Origin: Eledone cirrhosa
Lineage: Eukaryota
Length of the DNA stretch: 64,000 nt
Assembly (NCBI GenBank): GCA_964016885.1
Contig: OZ024743.1
Coordinates: forward strand, 335,234,001-335,298,000
Direction: 5' to 3'
Of the stretch, positions 1,921 through 57,114 are shown piece after piece; position 1 is the stretch's first letter, and each line of letters begins with the position of its first letter. A program made the position numbers and the translations under genes. Below the pieces are notes generated by a model, which was not told the DNA's origin, searched no databases, and was given only the letters and a program-made list of their open reading frames with translations.

Positions 1921-2370
1921 ATTCGTTTTTGAATTTGTTTTGCGAGATTTCTTATCTGAAAACGTGTGTTGAAACAGATATTGTTATACTTTGGGAGGGT
2001 CATGCTGCCAACAAAAACACACGCACCTGTTGGTTTTCACTTCAATTTATTATAAATTTCCGGTTGGTTGGTAGGTTGGATCGATAACCGGAAGGATGCT
2101 TATATATTGTCAAAGATCTTCTGTCACACTTTCTGTGACCTCCTCAGTGACTAGGAATTTGTGTGACGCTCTTCTTTGTTCTTTCCTACACCTAACCTTA
2201 AATCTAGTCACTGAGGAGGTCACATAATGTGTGACGAAGGGCTTTGACAATATATAAACAACCTTCTCGTTATCGAACCAACCAGCCAAAACGGAAACTT
2301 ATAATAAATTGATCTGAAACAAATAAGTGCGAGTGTTTTTATTGGCAACCTGACCCTTCCAAAGTATAAC
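1921..2370. mobile_element. Non-coding foldback element (PLE 3'-end derivative) with two divergent degenerate hammerheads
   Basis: Diverged inverted arms at about 1982-2154 and 2204-2370, flanked by microsatellites. HHR-like gtca-CTGAGGA-g-gtcaca/tgtgac-GAA..tgac at 2207-2248 (+) and 2109-2151 (-). Confidence 0.7.
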
Positions 2371-2439
2371 TATATATATATATATGTATATATATATATA
2401 TATATATATATATATATCTGGAGACTTAACTGAGAATAG

Positions 2440-2521
2440 ACTCCCTGATGACGCAATGAATTCTCGACAGTTGGATTACGTAACTGTCTTTATCCCATTG
2501 CAGAAACTAATTAGTTGGAGT
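2440..2521 (+). ncRNA. Type I hammerhead ribozyme (copy 1)
   Basis: Stem I actcc/ggagt; core CTGATGA; stem II gcaatg/cattgc with inner hairpin gacagtt/aactgtc; GAA; palindromic stem III actaattagt; GUU cleavage triplet. Confidence 0.85.
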
Positions 2522-3002
2522 GAAAATTTAAGTAAGTAAGCAAAAAAATTTTTTTTTAAATTTAAAAAAAAAAATATTTTCTTATTTTACGTCGTTTATA
2601 TTATTGTTCTGCATTCTCCTGCATTGAACCACCTAGGTACTATGACATAACCTGTGTATTTGCTAGCATGGGCGTGCATCTGTGCGCTTATGTTAGTTGA
2701 TATATTAAATTATCTATATTTATCTCCAAATCACTGATTTGTCGAGCAACCTTGCCAAAACCACTTCTAAAAAAATTTTTTTTAGGGTGTTAGTAGGCGT
2801 CAGTCATCTTACCATCCCATTCCTTCTAACTAGCCTCTGTGTCACGTGATTGATTCTTTAGAATCGGCCATTTGACCTGAAGCAGTGGGAATTTCGGTAC
2901 ATAGAATCCAGTCCTCGCCAGCTGTTCGATCTACCGAATTATTATTATTTTTATATGAGCCGCCAGTGTCTGCGCATTGCCTGGAGACTTAACTGAGAAT
3001 AG

Positions 3003-3084
3003 ACTCCCTGATGACGCAATGAATTCTCGACAGTTGGATTACGTAACTGTCTTTATCCCATTGCAGAAACTAATTAGTTGGAGT
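3003..3084 (+). ncRNA. Type I hammerhead ribozyme (copy 2)
   Basis: Same sequence as 2440-2521. Confidence 0.85.
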
Positions 3085-3562
3085 GAAAATTTAAGTAAGT
3101 AAGCAAAAAATTTTTAAAAAATTTTTTTTAAAAATATTTTCATATTTTACGTCGTTTATATTATTGTTCTGCATTCTCCTGCATTGAACCACCTAGGTAC
3201 TATGACATAACCTGTGTATTTGCTAGCATGGGCGTGCATCTGTGCGCTTATGTTAGTTGATATATTAAATTATCTATATTTATCTCCAAATCACTGATTT
3301 GTCGAGCAAACTTGCCAAAACCACTTCTAAAAAAAATTTTTTTGGGGTGTTAGTAGGCGTCAGTCATCTTACCATCCCATTCCTTCTAACTAGCCTCTGT
3401 GTCACGTGATTGATTCTTTAGAATCGGCCATTTGACCTGAAGCAGTGGGAATTTCGGTACATAGAATCCAGTCCTCGCCAGCTGTTCGATCTACCGAATT
3501 ATTATTATTTTTATATGAGCCGCCAGTGTCCGCGCATTGCCTGGAGACTTAACTGAGAATAG

Positions 3563-3644
3563 ACTCCCTGATGACGCAATGAATTCTCGACAGTTGGATT
3601 ACGTAACTGTCTTTATCCCATTGCAGAAACTAATTAGTTGGAGT
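3563..3644 (+). ncRNA. Type I hammerhead ribozyme (copy 3)
   Basis: Same sequence as 2440-2521. Confidence 0.85.
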
Positions 3645-3781
3645 GAAAATTTAAGTAAGTAAGCAAAAAATTTTTTTTAAATGTTTTTAAAAAATATTTT
3701 CTTATTTTACGTCGTTTATATATATATATATATATATATATACACATATATGTATATATATATATATGTATATATAATATA

Positions 3782-4650
3782 CTAGCAGTGGTACCCGGCG
3801 TTGCACGGGATAAGGTATTTTGGAAGGCGGGCCGCCAACAGACCTAATCGTGGAAAAACTGCATGACTGGACAATATGTAAAGAAAATAAACCGAATACT
3901 CTGATGGCTGGATAATCTTTAAGATTTTCCTCGATGAAGCAGGAAAAATGCAGGTTTTCACCTAATGCCGGCCCTAGTGGATCAAGAAAATGAATTTTTT
4001 TATGTGCTTAATATACCTTGAAATTTCGGGAAAATTGGCTAGATGTAACGCCTCCAAAAAGCCATAAAAAGCTGAAAAAATGAAGTTTTTCACCTAGGCC
4101 ATGAAAAATTTCGATTTTCTTTGCTCGCGGTATGAGGAAGAGACTGACTAATACATAGTTACAATTTCAAGGAAATCCGTCTGACGTAACGTCTCAACCC
4201 CCCCCCCCCCCAAGCTTAAAAAACGCAGTTTTTCAACGAATGTTGAATTCTTTTATGTGGATAACACTCCATGAAACATAAGTAATACAGATGTAAAGTT
4301 TGATGTAGATCGGTTAGGTAGTTCTCGAGTTTTAGGGATTCAAACTCAAAGACACACACACAGAGACACACATCCTCAGGGAAGTGACGTAATGCAGACA
4401 GCCAGACATACAGACAGATATTATAAGGGCGCGACGTGATATGTATGTATCTAAAAAGAGAAAGGCTAAGAATTATAGAGAGAGATCGCTAAATCGCCTA
4501 ATGTGGTCCCTAGAGCATTGAACATCTGAAATTTCTTTTGCTTAGAACACTCCCTGAAACAGAAGTATTACATGTTTAAAGTTTGAAAACAGTCGGTTGG
4601 GTGGTTCTCTCACACACACAGACAGACATCCTCAGTTTTATATATATAGA
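3782..4650 (-). mobile_element. Non-autonomous Helitron
   Basis: On the minus strand it begins TCtatatatataaaactgaggatgtctgtctg and ends with the hairpin cccgtgcaacgccggg followed by CTAG. It is inserted between A and T. Confidence 0.8.
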
Positions 4651-4734
4651 TAATATAGATATGTAATATAGATATGTATACACATATATATATATATAAT
4701 TATTATTATTATTACTGATATTATTTCCTTAAAT

Positions 4735-54767: not shown

Positions 54768-54974
54768 TAATATATATATACATATATTAATATATATATA
54801 CATGTATAAATAATATATATATATATATATATATATATATATATATATATATATATAAGAGAGTATTGAAGTTTGCTTGAAGCATTGTGGAATAAGTTAA
54901 ATTTCTGTAATTCGTTTGGACGCCTCGACAATGCAGATGGGTAAATCTCCGGGTAACAAGATCCGGTGGTGGAG

Positions 54975-55221
54975 AGAGAGATGTAAGTTGGTGTACGTTA
55001 AGATGCGTGGCGTGTATAAGACGTGTAGAGGAATGAAGGAAAGAGCGTAAAGGATAGAAATAAAAATAACAACACGAGAGAGAGTTACCTTGGGAGAGAT
55101 TTAATTGGTAACTCTCTCTCGTGTTGTTATTTTTATTTTTATCCTTTACGCTCTTTCCTTCATTCCTCTACACGTCTTATACACGCCACGCATCTTAACG
55201 TACACCAACTTACATCTCTCT
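54975..55221. repeat. Near-perfect 115-bp inverted repeat with 17-bp spacer
   Basis: 54975-55089 vs 55107-55221, one mismatch seen; no ribozyme core found. Confidence 0.92.
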
Positions 55222-55529
55222 GATTTTATCTCTCTGATTGTAACCAGAGAACTGCATACGGTGGATGAAGTGTTGTATGTGTCCTCTCTAGTTCTTTGGG
55301 GTTGCACATACGGGACACGTATCTCATCATCCGTACCAAATCCGCAATCAGTATGTTGATTTGGGTATGGTCCGAAACAGCTGAGTTTCGGTGGATCAGA
55401 TATTTGGAAGTATTGGGTTTAGCATAATGGGAATGGAAGATTTGTTTTCTGTTATTAATGGTATCTAACCAGAGCTCGGTGTCTAGTACACCCAGATGTA
55501 ATGCATGCGCAAACTAAGCACACAACAAT

Positions 55530-55838
55530 GGCGTAGGACAGAACAAAGGAGAGGCACAAAAACAAAGAAAATAATCCCCACTCATCGAAGAGGCCACAGA
55601 ATGTGTGACGAAAGAACTTTCACAATATATGAACAATCGTCTGGTTGTGGAACCAACCAACTAACCGGGAATTTATAAATTCATAAATTCATAAATTTAA
55701 TTTATAATAAATTGAGGTCAAAGCAACTGGTGCGTGTGTTTCTTATTAGCAACATGACCCTCCCAAAGCATAACAATATCGGTTTCAACACATGTTTTCA
55801 GATAAAGAATCTTGCTAAACAACTTCAGAAACGAAATA
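55530..55838 (+). mobile_element. Solo copy of the PLE 3'-end family of 1921-2370 and 22990-23340
   Basis: tgtgacgaaagaacttt half-HHR and ttattagcaacatgaccctcccaaagcataacaata terminus; a fragment also at 46829-46903. Confidence 0.72.
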
Positions 55839-55865
55839 TATATATATATATATATATATATATAT

Positions 55866-56060
55866 ATAGATGAGATTCTACAGGACTAGAACTGTTTCAT
55901 TCATTTGAAATCATCAGGAATCTGAGATTCCTGATGATTTCAAATGAATGAAACAGTTCTAGTCCTGTAGAATCTCATCTATATTAAAACTGTTATACTC
56001 TGCTATGTATTGAGTACCTTACTTACTGTGGTTACCTCCGATTCAACCCGGAATAACGTA
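55866..56060. mobile_element. Foldback element with two divergent hammerheads (55870-55923 minus, 55924-55978 plus)
   Basis: gagattc-CTGATGA-t-ttc/gaa-t-GAAA-cag..ctg-TA-gaatctc; same family as 21974-22180 in the opposite orientation, inserted in (TA)n. Confidence 0.87.
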
Positions 56061-56211
56061 TATATATATATATATATATATATATATATATATATATATA
56101 AAACATGAATAATAACAGGTAGACATAAAAAGGTAATTTATTCCGAGTGCTGACAAATGTTTCAACCGTAGTTATACAGCCTAGTCATGCTATGTGCAAT
56201 TGATATTTAAT

Positions 56212-57078
56212 AATTATTTGATTGCAGAAACTCAATTTTCAAATGTTGCGACTACCATTTCCTTAGAGCAGAATGGTTAAAATGTAAATACCCTTGTATT
56301 TCTTAAAGGAAATTATACTGCAACCACAAACTGAAGCCTAAATTCTCTCACTATGAAATAACTTAACATTTGAACCCTAGACTGCAATATCGCTTTCTCG
56401 CTAACTAATTCTTCTCAATAACTACTTCCTAACTATATCCCTCACCCTCACACTACAAGCCAATACCCTGCTTATCATTATAAATGGGTACTTGAGTGCG
56501 ATTTGTAGACTACAACTACGAACTCGATGTATCCCCATCTCGTAGCCTTCGTCTGTCTCCTCTCTATCTCTCTTTCTTTCTCTCTCTCCCTTCCCCTCTC
56601 TCTCCCTCTCTCTCTATATATATATATCTCTCTCTCTCGCCCTCGGTCTACTACACTCCCTCTCCACATCTATGAACCTGTTCTCTGTGACAATAAATAA
56701 TCCCAATCTTGACCACATCAACACAATGCCTAAGGGCTGTCACCTTGAGAATAAACAGTAAAATAAAACCCCTACCCCAATATTTTGATTTAGCTATCTG
56801 TATTCTTCAAACCACTCCCTCCCACTTCTCCAACCCCTACATCTCTCTCTCTCTCTCTTCTCTCTCTCTCTCTCTTCTCTCTCTCTCTCTCTTTCTCTCT
56901 CTCTCTCTCTCTCTCTCTCTCTCTCTCTCTTTCTCCCCTTCTTTTTCTCTTCCTTTCTACTCTATCTTCTCCAATAACTTCCTTTAAGAAATACAAGGGT
57001 ATTTACATTTTAACCATTCTGCTCTGAGGATATGGTAGTGGCAGCATTTGAAAAATGAGTTTCTGCAATCAAATAATT
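56212..57078. mobile_element. Foldback with ~100-bp arms carrying degenerate divergent hammerhead-like motifs
   Basis: 56212-56310 vs 56980-57078; right arm tgct-CTGAGGA-..-GAAA-aatgagtt-TC-tgca at 57020-57067. Confidence 0.6.
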
Positions 57079-57114
57079 GGCTCCTTAACTATTTCATTGT
57101 AAAGTTGGGCTAAC

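Follow-up and report, generated by a model that had tools for sequence, protein, structure and literature searches.

Why should one 64,000-nt stretch of the Eledone cirrhosa genome (assembly GCA_964016885.1, contig OZ024743.1, positions 335,234,001 to 335,298,000 of the forward strand; hereafter the window) hold so many type I hammerhead ribozymes, many of them in short head-to-head pairs? An earlier reading of its letters had attributed them to a diverse population of non-coding, ribozyme-processed retroelements. Our own answer, which we consider probable, is that the motifs are the ends of a radiation of Penelope-like elements (PLEs), accompanied by retrozymes likely mobilized by PLEs, all inserted in (TA)n, and that many of the short ribozyme cassettes likely represent internally primed cDNA that ran off the capped 5′ end of the transcript.

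The hammerhead motifs are real. A strict type I descriptor (canonical core; stem I ≥4 bp; stem II ≥3 bp with a free 10.1/11.1 pair; stem III palindromic or ≥2 bp; UH triplet) found 11 in the window, and a relaxed stem II rule added a twelfth at 14169. In dinucleotide-shuffled versions, the strict descriptor found on average 0.03 (30 global shuffles) and 0.00 (30 local shuffles in 200-nt blocks), with a maximum of 1. Window motifs combined the conserved core with three helices, of which helix I is open. Reading the whole window and grouping by BLAST brought the total to ~32 core positions in ~17 sequence families, a count made by eye rather than automatically; for the grouping, repeat-finder output was dominated by (TA)n and masked self-BLAST was used instead. 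The sequence-only reading had listed 17 well-formed motifs, and this inventory proved accurate: 12 pass the automated descriptor (the 11 strict motifs and 14169), and the other five (17962+, 18190−, 48724+, 52623− and 53242+) are identifiable by eye, four with a U3-A8 core and one copy with U4 replaced by C. Elsewhere in the genome, the descriptor accepts relatives of 17962, 18190, 52623 and 53242, whereas those of 48724 that it accepts are more distant. The same reading had left a comparison with shuffled DNA to be made, and the excess stands (11 versus 0.03). It had also described mismatched 10.1/11.1 pairs, present in 10 of the 11 strict motifs, and palindromic stems III, which hold for 7 of the 11 but not for four family B motifs with a 3-bp stem and an 8-nt loop. 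Its “unrelated” families are borne out as ~17 sequence families, but the parent proteins of families B, C9 and D are mutually 37–54% identical. An Rfam scan of the window did not include any hammerhead family among its best 150 of 257 rows, and its top rows were microRNA models placed on microsatellites.

Of the motifs that could be traced, most are ends of Penelope-like retrotransposons: 16 window motifs belong to the ends of coding PLEs, seven to tandem non-coding retrozymes, and nine are without assignment. For family B, locus L124 contains an uninterrupted open reading frame (ORF) of >700 aa encoding a reverse transcriptase (RT) plus, at its C terminus, a GIY-YIG endonuclease (EN), with one B hammerhead ~150 nt ahead of the start codon and another 3.65 kb past the endonuclease (3′ untranslated region [UTR] of ~3.7 kb); the element carries both 5′ and 3′ repeats. 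An intact PLE ORF was likewise found for family C9 (L269), and a PLE ORF lies between two family D arms (L263), and in all three cases an ORF with a telomerase-like RT and GIY-YIG, as expected of an endonuclease-bearing (EN+) PLE, is linked to the ribozyme repeat. These elements further show the pseudo-long terminal repeat (pseudo-LTR), inverted 5′-truncated arm and one-sided tail of PLEs, and the flanks of B and D copies and of L124 display the (TA)n insertion preference. Read by eye, the L124 and L269 translations have DKT, a CxCX5C linker, CxxC, CxH and a C-terminal EN, no CCHH, and RWK only as RW. DKT, CxCX5C, CxxC and CxH define the Hydra clade (PMC8557442), and by these motifs the B and C9 parents would belong to it. 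A homolog search returned 1,402 relatives with a best full-length identity of 45%.

Other families are tied to PLEs by endonuclease remnants at a family-constant distance upstream of the hammerhead, namely ~940 nt in family M, 1,320–1,380 nt in C3 (three loci) and 240–355 nt in I and I2 (five loci among family I relatives); in family G a remnant lies upstream in the window copy. Pfam did not recognize the GIY-YIG fragments of the window; their assignment used motifs and tblastn against intact ORFs. A CX2-5CxxC linker visible before the C-terminal GIY-YIG at 23529–24158 suggests that families I and I2 are Neptune-like. As a separate observation, the 3′ UTR of family B PLEs (L124, L117 and L119) comprises kilobases of TA/TG microsatellite-like sequence, and these elements may both target and spread microsatellites.

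Among five families tested, the 5′ ends of copies accumulate at one point in three (B, D and C9). In family B, 36 of 64 arms have their end inside the core or ≤12 nt upstream of it, where the truncation rate along the next 190 nt upstream would give 4.4; the arms were taken from the window, the random and neighbor samples described below and 50 pattern loci, 15 of which were chosen as apparently unpaired. Both family B head-to-head short pairs of the window (21976..22179, intact cores 22103(−) and 22119(+); 55864..56058, intact cores 55917(−) and 55931(+)) meet immediately upstream of the core, and in the first, which has one long and one short 3′ end, the junction coincides with the predicted transcription start. 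Among the first 100 rows, pattern matches are 4–47 nt apart in 16 of 19 B pairs; junction spacing and filler vary by locus, and both arms of a locus share variants. Adjacent B pairs combine a 90-nt tail on one arm with a short 3′ end on the other in 12 of 12 cases. Long B copies have a TATA-like box 30 nt upstream of an initiator-like sequence, the predicted first base being the first base of stem I, and the full-length L124 element starts 4–6 nt upstream of this point. Counted by eye over the first 100 of 2,065 matches, the first non-template base in B was G 79 times, T 11 times and A 10 times, and these matches include five pairs with G on both arms and a 1-nt spacer; the five informative non-inverted arms gave four G and one T. 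Separately, at L038 (~7762–7830) part of one arm of a B pair is reversed, resulting in a 53-nt direct repeat of the ribozyme body.

In family D, 26 of 30 copies start within 6 nt inside loop II, at an initiator-like sequence; 31 nt earlier lies a TATA-like box, which serves as the 5′ strand of stem II and is kept in two subfamilies. Many D copies carry half a ribozyme only, as in the window arm at 22213..22264 (−), which starts at the pile-up point, and the palindrome at 50333..50524, in which two half-ribozyme arms are joined there. The inverted pair at 52521..53425 (cores 52623(−) and 53242(+)), at a Hydra-type PLE 3′ end, instead has full U3-A8 hammerheads with the TATA-like box within the stem II 5′ strand. 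In family C9, 12 of 30 copies start 60–70 nt upstream of the core, within 11 nt of one another.

Retroviral minus-strand strong-stop DNA is primed near the RNA 5′ end and runs off at the cap. Copying of a cap by a reverse transcriptase leaves a C opposite it. We propose that PLEs routinely make and integrate strong-stop-like cDNA, seeding tens of thousands of promoterless ribozyme cassettes, a proposal towards which the balance tips slightly. The pile-up point would be the transcription start. The RT would bind the priming signal in the 5′ pseudo-LTR, the first on the transcript, and copy only 70–190 nt before meeting the cap, leaving a run-off cDNA that would terminate where transcription began and carry a C opposite the cap. 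Each of the two nicked strands would be extended by the enzyme from a different start site, after which microhomology or filler would join the cDNA ends head-to-head. Run-off products would be dead ends, having no upstream promoter, and long copies would come from priming at a downstream tandem unit. Such a model would explain why 5′ ends pile up, where the G comes from and why tails are asymmetric, as well as part of the ribozyme count.

Several of these steps have precedents. In vitro, the anole PLE enzyme nicks and extends both strands, initiates at two internal RNA start sites, needs RNA sequence downstream of them and uses uncleaved RNA (PMC11167929). PLE transcripts begin in the pseudo-LTR (PMC6765202; PMC8557442), and TATA and initiator sequences have been noted for Penelopes (PMC3846280). 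Two internal start sites together with a transcript start in the pseudo-LTR would put the first complete priming signal 70–190 nt from the cap, and the 12-of-12 tail asymmetry of family B matches the two RT start sites and two-strand extension of the anole enzyme (PMC11167929).

A number of observations weigh against this reading. The transcription start and the cap are deduced from DNA only. The C9 pile-up is without a TATA-like box, and families M and F showed no pile-up near the ribozyme (2 of 30 copies each). The G excess is clear only in B; of the arms that retain the predicted first base, G precedes it by eye in 4 of 17 in D and 3 of 8 in C9. The non-template G of B may itself derive from partner-arm microhomology or from fold-back of the cDNA on its own stem I. 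Paired arms do not count as independent observations, and the pattern loci, drawn from the start of a single chromosome, favor young copies. For families E, H, J, K, L and N, amounting to 9 of the 32 window motifs, no parent ORF was found or established. As to the ribozymes, minimum-energy folds of isolated monomers are mostly not hammerhead-shaped (z of 0.4 to −4.3, competing pairings in most), and 8 of 9 predicted Xenopus retrozymes showed no cleavage in vitro (bioRxiv 10.64898/2026.07.22.740005).

The main rival is structure-driven termination, in which a cDNA containing both stem I arms would fold back, leave its RNA and self-prime, producing palindromes with an extra G. The B pile-up coincides with the 5′ arm of stem I, the same G is predicted, paired arms share rare sequence variants, and self-priming has been proposed for palindromic junctions of rotifer Penelopes (PMC3846280). 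One of 21 G-bearing loci (L144) is indeed a complete fold-back product; however, the bases preceding the G at the 21 loci are mixed (T 11, G 6, A 4) and do not continue the stem. Solo non-inverted copies, moreover, end at the same point, and one long plus one short 3′ end per pair is not predicted by simple fold-back copying. The pile-ups of D, inside loop II, and of C9, 60–70 nt upstream of the core, are neither at the end of stem I. Fold-back thus fits B but not D or C9, and we regard it as unlikely.

Less likely still is the account offered by the sequence-only reading, i.e., mostly non-coding retrozymes, with tandem transcripts that dimeric ribozymes would cleave before circularization and re-insertion by PLE enzymes. 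It suits families A, A2 and F, which form dispersed ORF-less tandem arrays with intact cores and palindromic stem III, F being the largest family counted (24,680 copies), and retrozyme circles have been shown in coral, mussel and axolotl (PMC7229834). The repeated units (560 nt in A, 590–600 nt in A2, 420–540 nt in F) have one type I hammerhead each and no consistent upstream ORF, which makes these families non-LTR retrozymes by structure; homology to a coding parent was not found for A, A2 or F. Family A arrays show broadly spread 5′ truncation, an inverted arm, two 3′ ends ~120 nt apart and (TA)n flanks. This PLE-type signature is structural support for mobilization by PLEs, as proposed for retrozymes elsewhere (PMC7229834; bioRxiv 10.64898/2026.07.22.740005). 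Array structure, however, fits linear uncleaved multimers as well as circles, and the account covers only 7 of ~32 window motifs, whereas 16 trace to coding PLEs. Of the picture of non-coding, PLE-mobilized, ribozyme-processed elements, the link to PLEs was retained and given parent ORFs, but non-coding applies only to A, A2 and F; a mostly non-coding population had to be given up, since at least 16 motifs mark the 3′ end or a pseudo-LTR of a PLE that encodes protein. Tandem retrozymes also include families not represented in the window, at L073–L075 (C4, ~90 kb before the window) and L067: one array is palindromic, with 7 + 8 copies of a 469-nt unit, and a 311-nt unit differs in its four-base stem III palindrome.

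Another possible source of the short copies is spliced RNA, with an intron that reaches to helix I as in the Penelope of Drosophila virilis. The B pile-up point does have a pyrimidine tract and an acceptor dinucleotide, and an intron end at the 5′ end of helix I has been described (PMC4209133), but the short arms share no upstream exon sequence beyond one base and the D and C9 pile-ups are not preceded by an acceptor, making this very improbable. Least probable of all is the amplification, as units, of a few palindromic master copies in the manner of miniature inverted-repeat elements: some junctions recur (e.g., L095/L096 and L113/L114), but junction spacing varies widely, and loci with the same junction come from different subfamilies, yet both arms of each locus agree. 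Splicing and palindromic masters both fit worse than run-off or fold-back.

If many cassettes arise by run-off, what keeps the ribozyme itself? Across 800 kb of random and neighboring DNA, the strict descriptor counted 81 C3-G8, 12 U3-A8, 1 C3-A8 and 1 U3-G8 core pairs; covariation is quoted from these strict counts only, as the relaxed U3-A8 count of 19 includes satellite or doubtful matches. C3-G8 and U3-A8 both occur within single families, in two families, i.e., positions 3 and 8 covary, and U3-A8 is a natural, active covariation (PMC3088659; PMC4209133). The ribozyme core is likely under selection in source elements. Family M differs: of its 17,750 matches, all 100 listed have A at core position 4, with intact helices, as in the window head-to-head short pair at 44618..44812 (cores 44679(−) and 44689(+); Hydra-type PLE 3′ end). 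We filed this family as hammerhead-like, of doubtful activity given its likely crippled core. On position 4, the accessible literature offered only a U4C viroid variant with reduced activity, and a hammerhead family with a fixed U4-to-A change was not found in the open-access literature, supplements aside. The copies inspected retain both sides of the cleavage site, so their templates were likely uncleaved RNA; the searches required copies that span this site, and its retention is not an unbiased count. Site-spanning copies, the half ribozymes of D and the changed core of M agree with the in vitro finding that insertion needs no cleavage. The ribozyme is likely kept by selection in source elements and likely unnecessary for insertion.

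We next consider how unusual the window is within the 2.996-Gb assembly. The sample comprised 60 stretches of 10 kb at even spacing, 50 of which fall on the four largest chromosomes; it yielded 62 relaxed matches, of which 13 were dropped (11 from an AT-rich satellite at L065 and two doubtful singles) and 49 kept. This corresponds to 82 hammerheads per Mb (bootstrap 95% confidence interval 48–120), or by extrapolation ~245,000 genome-wide (145,000–360,000). The 200 kb flanking the window contained 45 motifs, i.e., ~225 per Mb. The 12 automated matches of the window are about twice the random mean, and resampling of 64 kb reached ≥12 with p = 0.056 from the random samples and p = 0.59 from the neighbors. 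A local hot spot was accordingly rejected, the window count being ordinary for its neighborhood; the “extreme density” noted earlier reflects a real motif excess that is a genome-wide property, and the window does not stand out. Over the 60 samples, stretches with more (TA)n tracts tend to have more motifs (Spearman 0.53). The L065 satellite mimics the U3-A8 core under relaxed descriptors and is a source of false positives.

Exact-pattern searches gave genome-wide counts of 3,995 for A (32-mer), 14,713 for B, 19,074 for C9 (31-mer), 8,254 for D (33-mer), 24,680 for F (32-mer) and 17,750 for M. The six families sum to 88,466 copies, with most D copies being half ribozymes, and reversed-pattern controls had zero matches for each. 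Hammerhead density per Mb may be similar in Schistosoma, hence we do not claim a record density. In absolute numbers, ~2,000 plus 1,300 minimal motifs have been reported for Schistosoma, 4,000 for coelacanth and 9,000 for Xenopus (PMC4209133), and >6,000 hammerheads for coral, ~5,000 for mussel and 126,247 for axolotl (PMC7229834). The estimate of ~245,000 exceeds the axolotl count, the largest among these, which comes from a roughly tenfold larger genome; no copy number for comparison was found in the accessible part of PMC6155905.

The remaining motifs of the window illustrate the same families. Tandem retrozymes comprise a family A array at 2418..3716 (+), with 2.3 units of ~560 nt between (TA)n and intact cores at 2445, 3008 and 3568 (C.A 10.1/11.1 pair, long stem II, 8-nt palindromic stem III); a family A2 unit (590–600 nt) at 17428..18095 (+), whose U3-A8 hammerhead (core 17962) has relatives at L076 that pass the descriptor; and family F units at 44065..44390 (+, intact core 44081), 45174..45670 (−, intact core 45485) and 51771..52098 (+, intact core 51791), with family spacings of 420–540 nt. 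Among PLE remnants, a 5′-truncated C9 element of putative Hydra-clade affinity at 11447..14261 (+) retains RT and GIY-YIG remnants (11607–12982), the hammerhead at 14169 and an inverted end at 11447–11581, its intact parent ORF being that of L269. A 5′-truncated family G PLE at 18100..19948 (−) has a GIY-YIG remnant (19631–19948), a microsatellite-rich 3′ UTR and the U4-to-C change in its core (18190). Family C3 is represented by a degenerate hammerhead at a PLE 3′ end (21362..21576, +, core 21388) and an intact one at 36750..37046 (+, core 36945), which forms an inverted structure with 35847–36103. The Neptune-like PLE remnant at 22992..26875 (−) comprises RT (24252–25346), GIY-YIG (23529–24158) and a degenerate I2 hammerhead (core 23286); a Naiad identity for this 23–27 kb element was rejected, as its endonuclease is C-terminal. 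Its ORF has a long asparagine-rich insert, 25208–26875 (−), as in rotifer Penelopes (PMC3846280). Family I contributes a degenerate head-to-head pair at a Neptune-like PLE 3′ end (1978..2375, cores 2147(−) and 2211(+)) and a degenerate hammerhead at 55214..55835 (core 55585(+)) beside an inverted Neptune-like RT fragment (55214–55495).

Motifs of the families without an established parent are a degenerate J hammerhead at 16947..17040 (+, core 16957), a U3-A8 hammerhead of family E with a long stem I at 48694..48840 (+, core 48724), an inverted H pair at 49233..50254 (degenerate cores 49588(−) and 49906(+)), a degenerate K hammerhead at 54212..54352 (+, core 54242), a head-to-head L pair at 54541..54767 (core 54623(−), partial arm 54750(+)) and an inverted N pair at 56212..57131 (degenerate cores 56266(−) and 57024(+)). 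At 16990–17430, a perfect inverted repeat of the family J 3′ end flanks a 370-nt (TA)n and abuts the A2 unit.

Much of the window is also ordinary LINE, Helitron and SINE debris (LINE and SINE, long and short interspersed nuclear elements). A young L1/Tx1-like LINE at 59897–64000 (+) has one 1,367-aa frame with RT and zf-RVT, its endonuclease region apparently largely deleted. Helitron-like ends with a terminal hairpin occur at 3780–4700 and 47390–48525, both in (TA)n, with a helicase-like fragment at 47888–48202 (by eye). One abundant SINE, which we take to be octopod-typical, recurs in many copies (4735–5509, 11855–11972, 33531–35221, 37147–37223, 41447–41766 and 44835–45037). A 458-nt inverted duplication of 98.7% identity (43203–43660 and 46316–46773) surrounds a nest of F, M and SINE insertions; it sits in a decayed transposase-like fragment related to 32392–32723 and looks like a large inverted target duplication. 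A tandem dimer of a 614-nt unit (39641–40872; 95% identity, no hammerhead match) is possibly another non-autonomous family, and a 250-nt palindrome at 54975–55221 consists of PLE-like 3′ UTR sequence, its top Rfam row being a chance microRNA match.

If run-off at the transcript start is correct, the pile-up marks the transcription start of each family from DNA alone. A ribozyme could then begin at the first transcribed base, as in B, or contain its own TATA box with a transcript that starts with half a ribozyme, as in D, and a lineage with a likely crippled core, as in M, would still amplify to >17,000 copies. Of full-length PLE enzymes, only one has been characterized in vitro, and both the transposition mode of PLEs and the role of their ribozyme invite study. 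Here, intact ORFs are available, along with six families of 4,000–25,000 exact copies and contrasts provided by nature, with the ribozyme lying at the start site, being split by it or having a changed core. These make testable whether run-off cDNAs lie behind solo and palindromic pseudo-LTRs, whether cleavage matters in amplification, and whether retrozymes share the PLE enzyme. Neither start-site pile-up nor strong-stop-like integration of PLEs was found in the open-access literature, supplements aside; there too, a cephalopod hammerhead survey or hammerheads at this scale were not found, octopus being named only for Naiads. The words ribozyme and hammerhead are both absent from the main text of an Octopus vulgaris repeat annotation of 2026 (PMC13282606).

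Much of the rest is already known, namely PLE hammerheads, palindromic helix III, U3-A8, opposite-strand pairs, retrozymes, tailed inverted arms and (TA)n targeting. With the Hydra-clade EN+ PLEs of Craig et al. 2021 (PMC8557442), the elements share a single RT plus C-terminal GIY-YIG ORF, the clade motifs, a terminal-repeat hammerhead, (TA)n targets and inverted 5′-truncated arms with a one-sided tail; they differ in being longer (3′ UTR of 0.7–3.7 kb) and in a tail of 80–120 rather than 30–40 nt, and a pile-up of short copies at the predicted start site is not described in the accessible part of that paper. The minimal PLE hammerheads of Cervera and de la Pena 2014 (PMC4209133) are likewise type I with palindromic helix III, U3-A8 and an additional base where stem II begins, and likewise occur as opposite-strand pairs 100–700 bp apart and mostly as single motifs from truncated PLEs. 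There, however, they number 2,000–9,000 per genome, compared with ~245,000 estimated here; stems II here reach ~60 nt, and the accessible text does not describe a family-wide U4-to-A core. Families A, A2 and F share dispersed tandem non-coding repeats, in a genome with autonomous PLEs, with the non-LTR retrozymes of Cervera and de la Pena 2020 (PMC7229834) and Li et al. 2026. Their units of 420–600 nt lie within the 51–972 nt of Li et al. (bioRxiv 10.64898/2026.07.22.740005) and above the 150–450 nt of PMC7229834, and unlike those retrozymes they show PLE-type inversion and two 3′ ends. The Anolis Poseidon PLE studied in vitro by Frangieh et al. 2024 (PMC11167929) shares tail and no-tail ends, extension of both strands, use of uncleaved RNA and AT-rich targets. 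Run-off at the 5′ pseudo-LTR is not discussed in the accessible text of that study, and our proposal would be its predicted consequence, seen in genomic copies. Compared with retroviral strong-stop DNA, finally, the PLE product would be primed by nicked target DNA, attached to the chromosome and integrated rather than transferred to the 3′ end, and does not belong to that class.

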